Shown: positions 39,879-45,413, counted from the stretch's first letter. The stretch: DNA of 59,140 nucleotides from an uncultured bacterium (GCA_905214995.1 CAJMOT010000001.1:1-59140); one strand, 5' to 3'. The notes: generated from the sequence alone by a model not told the origin. Program-made: numbers and translations.

Positions 39879-42164
39879 TCAGTCCTTTTTGGGGTCGGCG
39901 GCGTCGCGGAGGATGTCGCCGAGAATGTTGAAACACAGCACCGTCGCGAATATTGCCGCCCCCGGGGTGAGCATCCACCAGAAGCCGAGCATCAAAACTT
40001 TCGTGTCGTTCTGCGCCTGCGCGAGCATCAGCCCCCACGAGGCGGACGGCTCCTGTATCCCGAGGCCGAGGAACGACAGCGCGGCTTCCCCCAAAACGTA
40101 GGCGGGTATGGAGAGGGTTGCGCCCACTATCAGGTAGCTCAGGACATTGGGCAGAAAATGCCTTATTATTATTTTTACGGGAGATTCTCCCATAGCCTTC
40201 GCCGCCTGGACGTACTGGGCGTTTGCGAGGGAAAGCGACATTCCCCTGATGACACGCGCGGTCCCCGCCCAGCCGAGCGCGGAAAGTATTATGACTATCA
40301 TGACGTACATCTGCGCGCTGTCGAAGTGCGGGGCGAGGGCGGAGCGCATGGCGAGCAGCAGGTACAGGCTCGGAATCGCCATGAGAAACTCTACGAACCT
40401 CATCGCCACGAAGTCGAAAGTTCCGCCGAAATATCCCGCGAGCCCGCCCACGAGAAACCCGAGCGCCATGGTTATAGCGATTCCCACAAAGCCTATGCTC
40501 AGCGACACGCGCGCGCCGTAGAGCAGGCGGGAGAACACGTCGCGCCCCGTGGAGTCCGCGCCCAGAAGGTAAACGCGCGCGTCGGGTTCCGGAGAGTCCA
40601 CCCCGAACAGGCGCGCCTTAAACGGTATCAGCCCGAAGATTTTGTAGTCGCTCTTCTCGTCCCTCACGAAAAATTTTATCGGCAGGCTCTCGCCCTCCAC
40701 GGGCTCGTATTGCGCTATGCTCGGATCCGACTGGCGGTAGCATTGGGCGCGCAGCGAGCCGTTTTCAAAGAATATTTTTGTCGGCGGGTGGAAGGATTTG
40801 TCGAGGCACTGTTCGGTCGGCGAGTACGGGGCGAGGAACGGCGCAAAAATTGCGGCGGCGTACATTGCGGCGAGGATCGCGAGGGCGGCGGCGCCGCGCT
40901 TGGATCGCAGCGTCTGGGGGAGGAGGTTCTTGCAGAAGAACGCCGCCGCCCAGCACAGCCCGAGCGCGAGAGTCAGCGCGAGAACCGCGGCGCCCGCCAT
41001 TGTCGCCCGGAAGGAGGCGGTTTTGAGAATGCCGAAGAACGCGGGGAATGTCTCGCACGCCCACGTGAGGAGCGCGGCGGCCGCCGCGACGCACGCCGTG
41101 AAAACGGCGATGCCCTTCGCGGGCGCTTTTTCGCGCTCGAGGCGTATTCGCGGGTCTGCGAGCGCGAGCAGTATGTCGGCTATTAGCTGGCCCGCGACCA
41201 GCATCGCGCAGCCTATCACCACCCCCGCCATCACGACGTACTGGTCCTGCTTGATTATCGCCGCGTATATGAGCTGCCCGAGGCCCGGGTAGTTCATGAC
41301 GTTCTCCACGAGCAGCGCGCCGGAGAGCAGACCCGCAAAGGCGAATCCGAACGATGTGACCACCGGATTTATCGCGTTGCGCAGCACGTGCTTGAACATT
41401 ATGGCGTTCTCGCCCATTCCCTTTGCGCGGGCGGTCGTCACGAAATCCGCACGCGAGTAGTCGAGGAATGTCCCGCGCATCACGCGCATCATAGACGCTA
41501 TTCCGCCGAGCGAAAGGACGAGCGTCGGGAGTATTAGGTGTTTTATCCAGTCGCCGAACTTAGCCGCGGGGGAGAGGAAGTCGTGGAGTATGGAGACCTG
41601 CCCGCCCGTCGGCAGCAGACCCGTGATTGCGGCAAACAACACCGCAAGCAGCGCGAGGAAAAAGTACGGCACGCTTAGCGCGGCGTAGGCGAGAAACGCG
41701 CTTAGCTTGTCGAACGCGGAGTCGCGGCGGACGGCGGCGAGAACCCCGAGCGGAATGGAGACCGCGTAGATTGCGAAGGTGCTCGAGAGCGCGAGCAGAA
41801 GAGTCGGAAAAATTCTCTGCCCGATGAGATCGAGGACGGGTATCTTGTAGCTCCACGAAAACCCGAAGTCGGGCGCGCCGAAATATACGGCGGAATGTTT
41901 GCCCCTCTCGGATTCCGGCAGCAGAAGGCTCGTCTTGACCGGAGAGACGCCGTTGAGCCATCTGCCGTATTGCACGTACCACGGCTTGTCGAGCCCCAGG
42001 CGCATTTCCTCCTGCTTTACGATTTCGGGGCTGATGTCCTTGGAGTTGCGCGCCTCGCTCAGAAAATCCCCCGGGGCGAGGTACATGAGCAGAAACACGA
42101 GCGCGCTGATGCCCAGCATCAGGGGTATCATGGAAAGCAGCCGCCTTGCGATGAATTTCGCCAT
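39879..42164 (-). CDS. Fused peptide ABC permease (DppB/OppB plus DppC/OppC)
   Basis: N-half APGD...LGLDKP..VQY and TTARAKGM...KHVLRNA; C-half LLGADSTGRDVFSRLLYGARVSL, QAAKAMG...RHFLPN, LSFLGLG...SWG. Confidence 0.92.
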   Translation of the reverse strand: MAKFIARRLLSMIPLMLGISALVFLLMYLAPGDFLSEARNSKDISPEIVKQEEMRLGLDKPWYVQYGRWLNGVSPVKTSLLLPESERGKHSAVYFGAPDFGFSWSYKIPVLDLIGQRIFPTLLLALSSTFAIYAVSIPLGVLAAVRRDSAFDKLSAFLAYAALSVPYFFLALLAVLFAAITGLLPTGGQVSILHDFLSPAAKFGDWIKHLILPTLVLSLGGIASMMRVMRGTFLDYSRADFVTTARAKGMGENAIMFKHVLRNAINPVVTSFGFAFAGLLSGALLVENVMNYPGLGQLIYAAIIKQDQYVVMAGVVIGCAMLVAGQLIADILLALADPRIRLEREKAPAKGIAVFTACVAAAAALLTWACETFPAFFGILKTASFRATMAGAAVLALTLALGLCWAAAFFCKNLLPQTLRSKRGAAALAILAAMYAAAIFAPFLAPYSPTEQCLDKSFHPPTKIFFENGSLRAQCYRQSDPSIAQYEPVEGESLPIKFFVRDEKSDYKIFGLIPFKARLFGVDSPEPDARVYLLGADSTGRDVFSRLLYGARVSLSIGFVGIAITMALGFLVGGLAGYFGGTFDFVAMRFVEFLMAIPSLYLLLAMRSALAPHFDSAQMYVMIVIILSALGWAGTARVIRGMSLSLANAQYVQAAKAMGESPVKIIIRHFLPNVLSYLIVGATLSIPAYVLGEAALSFLGLGIQEPSASWGLMLAQAQNDTKVLMLGFWWMLTPGAAIFATVLCFNILGDILRDAADPKKD

Positions 42165-42168
42165 GCCC

Positions 42169-44010
42169 TTATTTTCCGCCCCCTTCGGATTCGCCCGGGT
42201 CGTAGAGCTCGTCGATGTTCCAGATCACGGAGCCGACCGGAGGCACGCGCACGTTGCGCCATTTCTCGGATACTCCCGAATAGCTCATAGGGGTGACGAG
42301 GAAGAGGAGGGGAAGCTCCCTCGAAAATATGTTTTGCATTTCGTCTACGAGCGCCTTGCGCCTGGCGGGGTCGAATTCGACCTCTTGGGCGTCCATTATT
42401 TCGTCGACGCGCCTTTCCCACTCGGTGGCGGGCGACTTTTGGCGGGGATTCCAGACGTGCAGAAAGCCGTCGGAGCGGTAGATGGCCTTGCCTCCCGACG
42501 GATCGCCGCCGCCGGTGAACCCCATGAGGGCGGCTTCGTATTCAAACGTGTTGTCGATTTTTGAAATCATCGTGCCGAAATCCATGAATTTCAGCCTCAC
42601 CTCTATGCCTATCGCCCTCATGTTCTCAACGAAGGTCGTGGACATTGCGGTCGCGTTTTGCGAGCCGTCCGCGACGATGAACTCGAATTCCACGCGGTTT
42701 TTTTGCGGGTCGAGCAGCCTTCCGGAGGCGTCGTAGGAAAATCCCTGGGATATCAGCATCTGCCGCGCCGATTCGGGGTCGTAGGAGTATTTTGGGGTGT
42801 CGGGGTTGTGCCATTTTTTGTTGGCGGGCGAGATTATCCCGTCGAGCTTTCTGGCGCGTCCGAACCACACGCTTTTTATCAGCCCGTCGCGGTCGACCGC
42901 CTTCATTACCGCCCTCCGAAATTCGGGGTTGGAGAACCATTTGAGCTTGTGCGGGGCGACATAGGGTTTGCCGCCCTCCGCCGAGCCCGGGTTGAGGTTG
43001 AACCACACGAAGAAAATTCCGGTGTCCGGGCCGCGCTCGTAAATTTTGAATTTGTAGGTTTCGGCGTAGTTTTTGACCCAGGCGTAGTCGTTTGCGCCCA
43101 CATTTGAGGCGTCGCACTGGCCCGTGGCGAAAAGTATTGTCGATGTGTTGGCGTCGGCGACGAACTTGTATATTAGAAAGTCTATGTAGGGCAGGCGGTT
43201 GCCCTTTTTGTCAGCCCGCCAGTAGTGCGGGTTGGGCTTGAGCGCGAGGCGCTCTCCGGGCTTGTAGGAGAAAATCTGGAACGGCCCCGACGCCGCGATT
43301 TCCGACGGGTTGGAAATCGCCGTCTGCGTGGACCACGCCCGCTGGAACGAGCCGTCCGCCGCCGCCTTTTCGAGGCGGTGTTTTGGCAGTATTCCCACAA
43401 ATCCTATGTCGGTGAGAAACGGCGCATAGGCCTTTTTTGTCGAAAACTCTACGGAGTACTTGCCGGTTTTTTTGAATTTTACGGGCTCTCCGCCTATCGT
43501 GTACTGGCCCGCGTACCTCGACGGATAGCGCAGCAGCGGCCTGCCGGTCGACTTGTCCGCAAGCGGCTTCCCGTCTTCGCCGAGGCTCGGGGCGAATATC
43601 GTCTCGAAAGTGAATATCACGTCGTCCGCCGTGATTTCGACCCCGTCGCTGAATTTTACGCCCTCGCGCAGGTCGAACCGGTAGGTTTTCTTGTCTTCCG
43701 ATATTGTCCACGATTTCGCGAGCGCGGGAATCGGGTTCATGGTGAAGGGGTCGACCGTCACGAGGGGCGAGAGGATAAGGTCGATTATCTGCGACGAGTA
43801 GGCGTCGGTCGCGATGAGCGGGTTGAAAGTTTTGGGTTCCTGCGAGGCGGCGAGGACGAATACGCCCCCGTAGTTCCCGGGGGTACATTCGGATATTTCG
43901 GCGTCCGCGGGCAGGGGAAATTCTCCGCGCCGTATTTCCGGAGGCCGCGAGCACGCGCACAGGCCCGCGGAGAGTAGGATAACTGCGGCTTTCGCGGCGC
44001 GGAATGTCAT
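42169..44010 (-). CDS. Peptide ABC transporter substrate-binding lipoprotein (SBP family 5)
   Basis: Lipobox LCAC, PKTFNP, PALAKSW, LREGVKFSDG.EITADDVIFT, SGPF, NPHYW. Confidence 0.93.
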   Translation of the reverse strand: MTFRAAKAAVILLSAGLCACSRPPEIRRGEFPLPADAEISECTPGNYGGVFVLAASQEPKTFNPLIATDAYSSQIIDLILSPLVTVDPFTMNPIPALAKSWTISEDKKTYRFDLREGVKFSDGVEITADDVIFTFETIFAPSLGEDGKPLADKSTGRPLLRYPSRYAGQYTIGGEPVKFKKTGKYSVEFSTKKAYAPFLTDIGFVGILPKHRLEKAAADGSFQRAWSTQTAISNPSEIAASGPFQIFSYKPGERLALKPNPHYWRADKKGNRLPYIDFLIYKFVADANTSTILFATGQCDASNVGANDYAWVKNYAETYKFKIYERGPDTGIFFVWFNLNPGSAEGGKPYVAPHKLKWFSNPEFRRAVMKAVDRDGLIKSVWFGRARKLDGIISPANKKWHNPDTPKYSYDPESARQMLISQGFSYDASGRLLDPQKNRVEFEFIVADGSQNATAMSTTFVENMRAIGIEVRLKFMDFGTMISKIDNTFEYEAALMGFTGGGDPSGGKAIYRSDGFLHVWNPRQKSPATEWERRVDEIMDAQEVEFDPARRKALVDEMQNIFSRELPLLFLVTPMSYSGVSEKWRNVRVPPVGSVIWNIDELYDPGESEGGGK

Positions 44011-45413
44011 CGGTCGCCGGCTTCCTCCGGAGGTTTGGAATCTCCGCCGCCGTTCTTCCCCGCAGGCGGAGGATTCGTTTCGGATTCCGCCGCGCTTTCC
44101 GCAGCCTCCGCGGAGTCGTTGAGGCTCCAGTCGGGCGTCATGAACGACGTGTCGGGACGGTTGAGGTTCCAGTCCGGGCCGAAGTCCGGAACGGGGCGCG
44201 CCAGCCTGCCGTAGTCTATGTAGGAGTCCATCTTGTAGTCCTCCTCGTAATATCCCATGCCGTAGTCGTCAACCCTGTTCGGGTCGTAGTCTTCCGGAAG
44301 CTCGTAGTGCGAACGGTCGATATGCCCGAATTCCCCCTCGGGCTCGGATACCGCCTCCGCTCCGCCTTCGGCTTCGAGCCTTTCCGCCTCCTCTTCGGCG
44401 AGGCGCTCCTTTGCGACGGTTTTGGCGTATTCCCGCATCTGCTTTTGCTCTTCGATTTCCTCGAGCCGCTCCCTTTCGGCGTCGCGGCGCAGCTTGGCGT
44501 TGCGCATTTTTTCCCCGAGCCTCAGCGCGACTTCGTACATCAGGTAGAGCGGAATGGTGAGCGACACCTGCGTAATGGCGTCCGGAGGCGTTATGACGGT
44601 TGCGAAAATGAGGATTATCAAAAACACCATGCGGCGGTTGCTTTTCAGCCATGCGGTGTCGAGTATCCCGAGGTATATCAGTATGAACTCCACGAGGGGG
44701 AGCTCGAACGTCACTCCGACCGCCATCGTCAGGAATATCACCATGCTGTAATACGACTGCGCGTCGGGGAACATCTCCATCTGCATTCCCTGGGACATCC
44801 ACGACATGAACGCTATCCCCATCGGCAGCATGAAGAAAAACGCGAAGCACACGCCCACCGCGAACAGGAATATCGCCGCAATGATTCCCGGGCGCAGCAT
44901 TGCGAGCTCCTCCTTTTTAAGCCCGGGCGCGACGAAGCGCGCCGAAAAGTAGAACGCCGCCGGCAGCGACAGCCCGAGCGCCCCGAGGAACCCGACGTAA
45001 AAATACACCACTATCGGGGTTGTGAACGACATCGAGCGCAGCTTGATGTCGGCGTACCACGGACTTGCGGGCTTTTTGTCCTTGAACAGGACGATGGAAT
45101 CGTCTTTGGGCTCTATGTAGTACGGGCCTGTTTTCGTCTTGCCGTCTCCTCCGTCGGGGACGAGGTACACAGGGCCTATGCGCTCGGTCTTTACGTCCGT
45201 CACCTGCTCGTCGCCGACCCAATTCGCGAGGATTTCCTTGGCGGAATTGAGCGGGTAGAGCATCATGGAGTTGAAGTAGTGGAAGAATGCCAGCACGAAC
45301 ACCAGCGCCGCGGAGAAGAACGCCAGAATTTTGATTATGACGAACCTCATTTCCTCGAGGTGTTCGAGGAACGTCATTTCGGACGGGTCGTTTTCCTGGG
45401 ATTCTTCCGGCAT
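44007..45413 (-). CDS. tatC: Twin-arginine translocase subunit TatC with a long C-terminal extension
   Basis: MTFLEHLEEMR, FVAPGLKKEE, GVTFELP, AxVITPPD, PLYLMYE. Confidence 0.93.
   Translation of the reverse strand: MPEESQENDPSEMTFLEHLEEMRFVIIKILAFFSAALVFVLAFFHYFNSMMLYPLNSAKEILANWVGDEQVTDVKTERIGPVYLVPDGGDGKTKTGPYYIEPKDDSIVLFKDKKPASPWYADIKLRSMSFTTPIVVYFYVGFLGALGLSLPAAFYFSARFVAPGLKKEELAMLRPGIIAAIFLFAVGVCFAFFFMLPMGIAFMSWMSQGMQMEMFPDAQSYYSMVIFLTMAVGVTFELPLVEFILIYLGILDTAWLKSNRRMVFLIILIFATVITPPDAITQVSLTIPLYLMYEVALRLGEKMRNAKLRRDAERERLEEIEEQKQMREYAKTVAKERLAEEEAERLEAEGGAEAVSEPEGEFGHIDRSHYELPEDYDPNRVDDYGMGYYEEDYKMDSYIDYGRLARPVPDFGPDWNLNRPDTSFMTPDWSLNDSAEAAESAAESETNPPPAGKNGGGDSKPPEEAGDR

Follow-up and report, generated by a model that had tools for sequence, protein, structure and literature searches.

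A 59,140-nucleotide (nt) stretch of DNA from an uncultured bacterium (GCA_905214995.1 CAJMOT010000001.1:1-59140; hereafter the window, with positions counted from its first letter) encodes on its minus strand a TatC, the membrane receptor in twin-arginine translocation (Tat), that ends in a long cytoplasmic tail carrying a tandem PDWxLN motif. This tail is a real, conserved feature and makes the protein a new variant on the known TatC. The two motif copies lie in a 36-amino-acid (aa) block that is conserved about as well as the membrane core of the protein, although the sequence on either side of it varies widely.

The TatC receptor and its conserved tail block

The product of the tatC open reading frame (ORF; Table 1) is a genuine TatC. 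Its residues 17 to 288 match the Pfam TatC family (PF00902) over profile positions 1 to 208 of 208, at 157.6 bits against a cut-off of 25.1. The NCBIfam TatC equivalog TIGR00945 scored 120.2 bits, short of a cut-off of 132.7 that serves as its naming threshold, and its match was split into two stretches; both the shortfall and the split fit an insert in the first periplasmic loop (loop 1) that divides the match. An AlphaFold2 (AF2) model built from a 51-sequence alignment placed the transmembrane (TM) helices at predicted local distance difference test (pLDDT) values of 80 to 91. Foldseek recognized the six-TM TatC fold in this model, matching 4b4a, 9e07, 9e02, 9e01, 9dzz, and 4hts with E values of 1.7e-8 to 4e-7 and a probability of 1.00 (TM-score by target, 0.73 for Aquifex TatC 4b4a and 0.61 to 0.73 over the canonical TatCs).

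A phmmer alignment to Escherichia coli TatC (9dzz/9r91; E value, ~1e-25) sets E169 opposite E. coli E103. E169 is invariant in the 51 sequences, as are F15, H18, L19, E20, and R23 of the N-terminal region, E20 lying within FLEHLEEMR. We take E15 and E103 to be the acidic residues by which E. coli TatC binds signal peptides. Motif likeness suggests that E20 is the equivalent of E15, in a region where the phmmer alignment is not significant; E103 is named in a study of the E. coli protein (10.1101/2025.09.16.676506). Across TM2 to TM6 (residues 129 to 295), mean identity to 50 homologs is 0.73 and the median ratio of nonsynonymous to synonymous differences per site (pN/pS) over 171 pairs is 0.27, the samples on which all such values below are based.

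This protein is shown to be the sole functional TatC receptor in a two-component (TatA plus TatC) Tat system in a gut-associated genus of Verrucomicrobiota. Source names of the homologs indicate Opitutales/Verrucomicrobiota for the genus, and near-identical DNA occurs in chicken-gut metagenome runs. The assembly of the window's genome (G000; 2.33 Mb, 252 contigs, 92.8% complete) has one TatC gene and one TatA-family gene, with no second paralog. The latter is the sole PF02416 match over the cut-off (C88:4132-4275; 78.3 bits) and lies on another contig; no TatA/B-family gene was found with PF02416 in the window, in line with the preliminary description of this DNA, which had noted no tatA or tatB nearby. 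Exactly one TatA-family gene is present in 31/31 genomes of the genus. Judged by its predicted substrates, the Tat pathway is clearly in use in this genome. TIGR01409 finds 15 Tat signals over the cut-off, and the 19 best-scoring ORFs (these 15 plus 4 just below) begin with RRxFLK-type signals. Pfam matches were obtained for 16 of the 19, spread over 10 different families and mostly cofactor enzymes: seven Gfo/Idh/MocA oxidoreductases, two xylose-isomerase-like barrels, two aldo-keto reductases, one FAD oxidoreductase, DUF1501, DUF362, a gluconate dehydrogenase subunit, and Amidase_3.

After TM6 the protein continues for ~170 aa in the cytoplasm (44007 to 44515; residues ~300 to 468 and the stop codon), in four parts. 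The preliminary description, made from the sequence alone, had read the protein as a long TatC of this kind, and the strings that it quoted all stand in the translation: ERERLEEIEEQKQ at residues 313 to 325, YELPEDYDPNRVDDYGMGYYEEDY at 369 to 392, PDFGPDWNLN at 409 to 418, and SFMTPDWSLN at 423 to 432. Its two GPxY repeats in an enlarged loop 1 were located as well, GPVY at residues 80 to 83 and GPYY at 96 to 99. The coiled coil that it placed after TM6 did not hold up. In the AF2 model, TM6 and the next ~50 residues form one helix (residues 279 to 349; pLDDT, 81 to 89 in the full-length model and 87 to 96 in a tail-only model) that is basic beside the membrane and then E/K/R-rich. The segment is 74% E/R/K/Q/A/D and lacks a hydrophobic a/d register, the best heptad register having 27% LIVMFYW at a/d, and so looks like a single charged helix. 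It carries a conserved REYA...AKERLAE patch, with E328, Y329, A334, R337, and E340 at at least 90% conservation in the 51 sequences; the helix as a whole (residues 296 to 350) has a mean identity of 0.50 and a pN/pS of 0.49.

The Tyr-rich tract that follows (residues 351 to 396) has a net charge of -12, against about -22 for the whole tail, and is 13% Tyr. Its mean identity is 0.34, its pN/pS is 0.59, and its pLDDT is below 50 in the full-length model and 50 to 64 in the tail-only model; DYDP[NSTD] occurs in 24/51 homologs. The end of the protein beyond the conserved block is variable (13% mean identity, 37% gaps, and pLDDT below 50 in the full-length model), and tail length after TM6, which ranges from 116 to 283 aa in the 24 loci read (of 25) from the window's genus, differs mostly past the block. 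No credible Pfam or NCBIfam match to the tail was found when the whole protein was searched at an E value of <=1, and a Protein Atlas look-alike search with the tail gave no usable match. The translation shows no hydrophobic (TM) segment in the tail, and PF02416 matched nowhere in the protein.

An 18-nt in-frame insertion at ~44077, which agrees with the 474-aa variants P0002 and P0003, appears in contigs from two RNA-library runs of one chicken-gut study and differs slightly in sequence between the runs. RNA-library contigs (from two chicken-gut runs of one study and one bovine run) span the tail at 95 to 99% identity, which is no proof of transcription.

Between flanks of 0.34 identity (acidic tract) and 0.13 identity (variable end), the block is a conserved island. 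Its mean identity of 0.71 and pN/pS of 0.32 are on par with the membrane core (71% versus 73% and 0.32 versus 0.27), with synonymous sites saturated in all segments measured (pS, 0.7 to 0.8). Judging from these comparisons, the block is under purifying selection close to that on the TM core. P413, W415, L417, N418, and P427 are invariant in the 51 sequences. At least one copy of P.W.[LIM]N occurs in 51/51 aligned long homologs and two copies occur in 46/51, always (46/46) spaced 14 residues apart; in one species the repeat is plain as two copies of a PDTS-x-x-S-PDWSLN unit. Within ORFs of at least 80 aa from all six frames of the window's genome, PDW.LN occurs twice, both times in the TatC tail, and relaxed patterns (P.W.LN and others) add one match in a 107-aa frame on contig C128 and two loose matches. 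The PDWxLN pair is more than chance.

AF2 predicts one-turn helices at W415 to N418 and W429 to N432, with block pLDDT values of 59 to 61 in the full-length model and 69 to 80 in the tail-only model. The predicted TM-score (pTM) of the tail-only model is 0.31, and therefore the tail has no globular fold. A conserved island, variable disordered flanks, and structure that is local only are together the marks of a short linear motif.

Table 1. Features of the tatC gene in the window, all on the minus strand
Feature	Position	Strand	Basis
tatC ORF, 468 aa plus stop codon	44007..45413	-	ORF list, translation, Pfam PF00902 (E 4.8e-46), Foldseek 4b4a
Cytoplasmic N-terminus and TM1, residues 1-50, with FLEHLEEMR	45264..45413	-	AF2 helix 15-42
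Enlarged first periplasmic loop, residues 51-128	45030..45263	-	AF2 and alignment
Predicted beta-hairpin with GPxY strings as strands, residues 79-84 and 95-100	45114-45179	-	AF2, modest pLDDT (53-69)
TatC core TM2-TM6, residues 129-295, including E169	44529..45029	-	phmmer to E. coli TatC; identity 0.73
Charged helix continuing TM6, residues 296-350	44364..44528	-	AF2, alignment
Acidic Tyr-rich disordered tract, residues 351-396, with islands IDxSHY and LPEDYDPN	44226..44363	-	pLDDT, composition
Conserved 36-aa block, residues 397-432: YIDYG, then two 14-aa repeats each ending in PDWxLN	44118..44225	-	Alignment, AF2
PDWNLN	44160-44177	-	Translation
PDWSLN	44118-44135	-	Translation
Variable acidic/Ser/Pro/Gly-rich end, residues 433-468	44010..44117	-	Identity, gaps

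Distribution follows family lines. The long form of TatC is present in 24/24 same-genus genomes searched, and relatives thus keep both tail and motif. Of 401 genomes in the order, 30 were matched by a profile of the block, and a single family accounts for them all. They comprise the window's genome together with 26/26 in the window's genus (g1) and 3/3 in g19; the other genera of the family, g18 (0/2) and g20 (0/3), and other families (0/366) gave no profile match. TatC frames of g20, read directly, carry PDWDLN or two PKW[DN]LN copies that fall below the profile threshold; the g18 tail is acidic and Tyr- and Ser-rich and lacks the motif. Against 1.84 billion representative proteins, the profile gave 10 matches at an E value of <=1e-3, of which 8 are TatC or TatC-tail fragments. 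The other candidates, a 5,256-aa repeat protein with RP[DN]W.VN within its repeats (P0127; E value, 2.7e-5) and a 150-aa fragment starting within the block (P0125), were set aside as probable chance or artifact.

TatCs without the periplasmic insert also bear the block (P0126, P0128, P0129, and those of g19 and g20), so it behaves as a separable module. By these sequence surveys, the tail block is an innovation at the family level, occurs apart from the loop insert, and is private to TatC. In a tree of the TatC core, g1, g19, and g20 group together (support, 81/84) and g18 falls with the outgroups. The tree has a midpoint root and long branches, and rows L019, L032, and L033 were left out. It fits a single gain of the block, with a loss in g18 as the alternative. 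TatCs of the genera bearing the block are just 32 to 43% identical. One same-genus TatC match (L024; G014:C10:41159-42517) has one in-frame TGA, which could reflect a sequencing error, a pseudogene, or a split gene.

A proposed docking role for the motif pair and its alternatives

Delivery and checking of folded substrates at the Tat receptor are still debated, and TatC's cytoplasmic ends are regarded as dispensable in model systems. A motif conserved like the membrane core, set on a long tether and private to TatC, suggests a specific interaction where the translocase opens to the cytoplasm. We propose tentatively, as a reading that stops somewhat short of being probable, that the putative tethered, bivalent pair of short linear motifs docks a cytoplasmic partner or substrate at the Tat receptor. 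Each PDWxLN would be a pre-formed, capped one-turn helix, with Pro-Asp as N-cap, Asn as C-cap, and Trp and Leu exposed, and a TatC trimer, as in solved Tat complexes, would present six copies of the motif. The charged helix and the acidic linker would serve as spacer and provide reach. At the receptor mouth the pair would then engage a specific cytoplasmic protein, candidates being a targeting, proofreading, or scaffolding factor or else a surface common to substrates.

In the TatB3C3 structure, an inverted cup open to the cytoplasm, TM5 and TM6 are tilted inside, and at the opening the signal peptide and a helix of the mature cargo dock (PMC13673990; 10.1101/2025.09.16.676506), so the TM6 extension would start right at the cytoplasm-facing, substrate-docking mouth. 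A rigid spacer, a flexible acidic linker, a conserved bivalent motif, and a variable end together give the tail the look of a tethered docking motif. There is also precedent for cis-side arms that touch cargo, since chloroplast TatC (cpTatC) has an N-terminal extension that cross-links to the mature domain of the precursor (bioRxiv 10.1101/2024.11.24.625085) and a helix of the SufI mature domain docks on the cytoplasmic face of TatBC (bioRxiv 10.1101/2025.09.16.676506). Docking motifs had been offered in the preliminary description as one use of the tail, and that idea fits what the alignments and models suggest: a conserved, disordered-flanked island under purifying selection, with predicted capped one-turn helices on a flexible tether.

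Several observations weigh against docking. No partner candidate emerged: the window's genome has no other protein sharing the motif, and thus gives no sign of a shared hub. No conserved neighbor points to a partner either, since the pheT-tatC-oppA-like synteny is family-wide and includes motif-less g18. Chaperones of the TorD/DmsD/NarJ family were not found in the window's genome, at the completeness given above. Tat load is not tracked by the motif, with TIGR01409 (E value of <=0.01) finding 9 and 13 signals in motif-less g18 genomes and 2 and 2 in motif-bearing g20 genomes. Moreover, g18 manages without the motif, which is therefore not essential to TatAC function. The C terminus of E. coli TatC is short and poorly conserved, is unresolved by cryo-electron microscopy (cryo-EM), and tolerates a tag (10.1101/2025.09.16.676506). 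Finally, conservation alone cannot separate a partner in trans from an intramolecular contact.

A more specific version of the docking proposal makes the block a receptor-side site for a dedicated cytoplasmic Tat targeting or proofreading factor, and with it a soluble delivery step for folded-protein export; we consider this version quite unlikely. If true, it would give Tat a delivery step comparable to docking at the signal recognition particle (SRP) receptor or SecA in the Sec system, and acidic extensions that recur at the N or C terminus of other Verrucomicrobiota TatCs, some of them with other end modules, would be variants of one recruiting principle.

The tail might instead capture substrates directly. 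The acidic, Tyr-rich tract would draw basic twin-arginine signals through salt bridges and cation-pi contacts, the block would touch the hydrophobic part of the signal or the folded mature domain, and the two together would hold precursors at the receptor, as has been proposed for cpTatC's N-terminal extension and the cytoplasmic domain of TatB. The charge and Tyr content of the tract agree with such an arm, both TatC termini are cytoplasmic, and strongly acidic cytoplasmic extensions recur at either terminus on other Verrucomicrobiota TatCs (8 N-terminal and 2 C-terminal among 57 distant matches). By analogy, so do the cpTatC cross-links to the precursor mature domain (10.1101/2024.11.24.625085) and the chaperone-like activity of the TatB C-terminal domain (PMC13673990; PMC9436932), and a cation-pi contact links TatC Y100 to an arginine of SufI (10.1101/2025.09.16.676506). 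A general electrostatic antenna, however, leaves the invariant P-x-W-x-L-N at its fixed 14-residue spacing unexplained, the substrates are diverse (10 Pfam families among the 16 annotated), and presence of the motif does not track the number of Tat signals. We regard capture as rather unlikely.

If the contact is intramolecular, the block would fold onto the TatC helix patch, the cytoplasmic face, or TatA and regulate the complex from within, either as a ball-and-chain lid over the receptor cup or as a clamp that recruits TatA. The privacy of the motif to TatC favors this idea, as do the second conserved patch on the helix (the five residues at 90% or above) and the start of the TM6 extension at the mouth of the inverted TatB3C3 cup (PMC13673990). 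Yet AF2, free to dock the block in cis, gave pLDDT values of ~60 and, for the tail alone, the pTM of 0.31, and the TatA of motif-less g18 is almost the same as that of genera with the motif. An intracomplex regulator is in our view an improbable explanation.

The cytoplasmic part of TatB is a charged helical and disordered region. The long charged helical region and disordered end of the tail loosely resemble it, and the genus has no TatB, with a single TatA-family gene in each of the 31 genomes. These points could suggest that the tail supplies in cis what TatB gives to three-component systems, as had been put forward at the outset. The distribution does not support this substitution. Other families of the order, sampled in 16 genomes whose TatC frames span 263 to 390 aa, have one TatA-family gene in 11 genomes, two matches in 2, and none in 3; the single TatA-family gene thus also accompanies short TatCs, and a missing TatB does not explain the tail. 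No covariation of TatA with the motif is visible, TatA being nearly the same in g18, where the motif is absent. TatB binds TatC and the signal peptide through its TM helix and amphipathic helix, and no match to either is found in the tail. Two-component TatAC systems function with a TatA that is bifunctional (PMC13673990), and a cryo-EM structure of TatAC exists (9e07). Verrucomicrobia have been tabulated as tatB-less with unlinked tatC, and unlinked tatA is usual for the phylum (PMC3827258). We hold the substitute reading to be very unlikely.

A functionless tail grown by neutral low-complexity expansion is scarcely credible. Length and sequence do vary freely over the final ~36 residues and over much of the acidic tract, and in-frame indels separate near-identical strains. 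Conservation nonetheless refutes it for the block and the helix patch (a block pN/pS of 0.32 with pS saturated at ~0.8, and invariant residues at fixed spacing across genera whose TatCs are 32 to 43% identical), and such expansion is likely only for residues 433 to 468.

Other elaborated TatC proteins

Canonical TatCs (E. coli 9DZZ/9E01, Aquifex aeolicus 4B4A/4HTS, and Nitratifractor TatAC 9E07) share with this protein the six-TM core, sequence homology, the alignment of E169 with E103, a single TatA partner gene, and substrates with twin-arginine (RR) signals. In contrast, the protein described here is ~200 aa longer, with a loop-1 insert of ~45 to 70 aa and a ~170-aa tail bearing the tandem motif.

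The N-terminal stromal extension on cpTatC (70 to 100 aa), likewise a soluble cis-side extension, is a functional analogue of an arm that contacts substrates or partners. However, it sits at the other terminus, has no sequence relation to the tail, and, in the available part of its description, shows no PDWxLN or charged helix (10.1101/2024.11.24.625085). The C-terminal domain of TatB is also a charged helical or disordered cytoplasmic region beside the receptor, with reported chaperone-like contact with substrates (PMC13673990; PMC9436932), but TatB, with its TM anchor and amphipathic helix, is a TatA-family protein in its own right; the tail has neither element and shows no correlation with a missing TatB.

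Lineage-specific elaborations of TatC itself include haloarchaeal TatCt (14 TM), TatCx (10 TM), and TatCn (PMC13673990), which differ in gaining extra TM helices or N-terminal extensions rather than a soluble C-terminal motif tail. TatC of Myxococcus xanthus (9E03; Foldseek rank 7, E value of 1.1e-3) has an enlarged, folded periplasmic domain (PMC13673990), which sets a precedent for enlargement on that side. The insert described here is smaller than that of M. xanthus, a beta-hairpin predicted at modest confidence, and confined to one genus. A 2026 FEMS review names no TatC elaborations other than the TM extensions of haloarchaea and the periplasmic domain of M. xanthus (PMC13673990). No description of a comparable C-terminal cytoplasmic tail on TatC or of a PDWxLN motif was found in the literature searched, subscription-only papers lying outside the search.

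The 57 more distant TatC matches include 8 with N-terminal extensions of 58 to 143 aa (net charge, -20 to -41) and 2 with acidic C-terminal tails. The eight are Opitutales-type TatCs with short C-terminal tails, some with Tyr-rich extensions (P0075, P0081, P0084, P0088, P0091, P0092, P0094, and P0098), and either end of TatC can thus bear an acidic arm. A further set of distant TatCs of 440 to 480 aa (P0066, P0069, P0071, P0076, P0077, and P0080) has precomputed SAM-domain matches (PF00536/PF07647); as read from the sequences themselves, the SAM-like stretch falls within periplasmic loop 1, and an extra (seventh) hydrophobic segment follows TM6. Decorated TatCs seem common in Verrucomicrobiota, the PDWxLN tail being one version, which adds to the signs that this phylum has repeatedly decorated TatC with cytoplasmic acidic arms and end modules. 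Were the tail a lineage-specific tuning device only, it would still make a neat case of a short linear motif in bacteria.

Loop insert and gene neighborhood

The loop-1 insert follows a narrower distribution than the tail block. G80, P81, V82, G96, and P97, which include residues of both GPxY strings, are conserved in at least 90% of the 51 sequences, and the insert is absent from the TatCs of the three other genera of the family (g18, g19, and g20). By alignment, the insert is limited to one genus.

Upstream of tatC lies pheT; downstream are an OppA-like binding protein (SBP_bac_5) and then a fused OppB-OppC permease. The pheT-tatC-SBP order is kept in the 24 loci of the window's genus that have both flanks, the 25th (L028) ending at a contig edge, and also in 8/8 loci of g18, g19, and g20. 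In two g20 genomes (G236 and G175), TIGR01409 finds 2 matches each at an E value of <=0.01, versus 9 to 13 in six genomes of the other three genera; TatA, TatC, and the tail motif are kept in both. The stop codon of tatC and the ATG of the OppA-like ORF overlap by 4 nt (ATGA, minus strand, 44007 to 44010), an arrangement that suggests translational coupling of the two, provided that translation does start at that ATG. A 761-aa ORF (39879 to 42164, minus strand) directly downstream of the binding-protein gene comprises the two fused ABC peptide-permease halves, with BPD_transp_1 matched twice and OppC_N in between.

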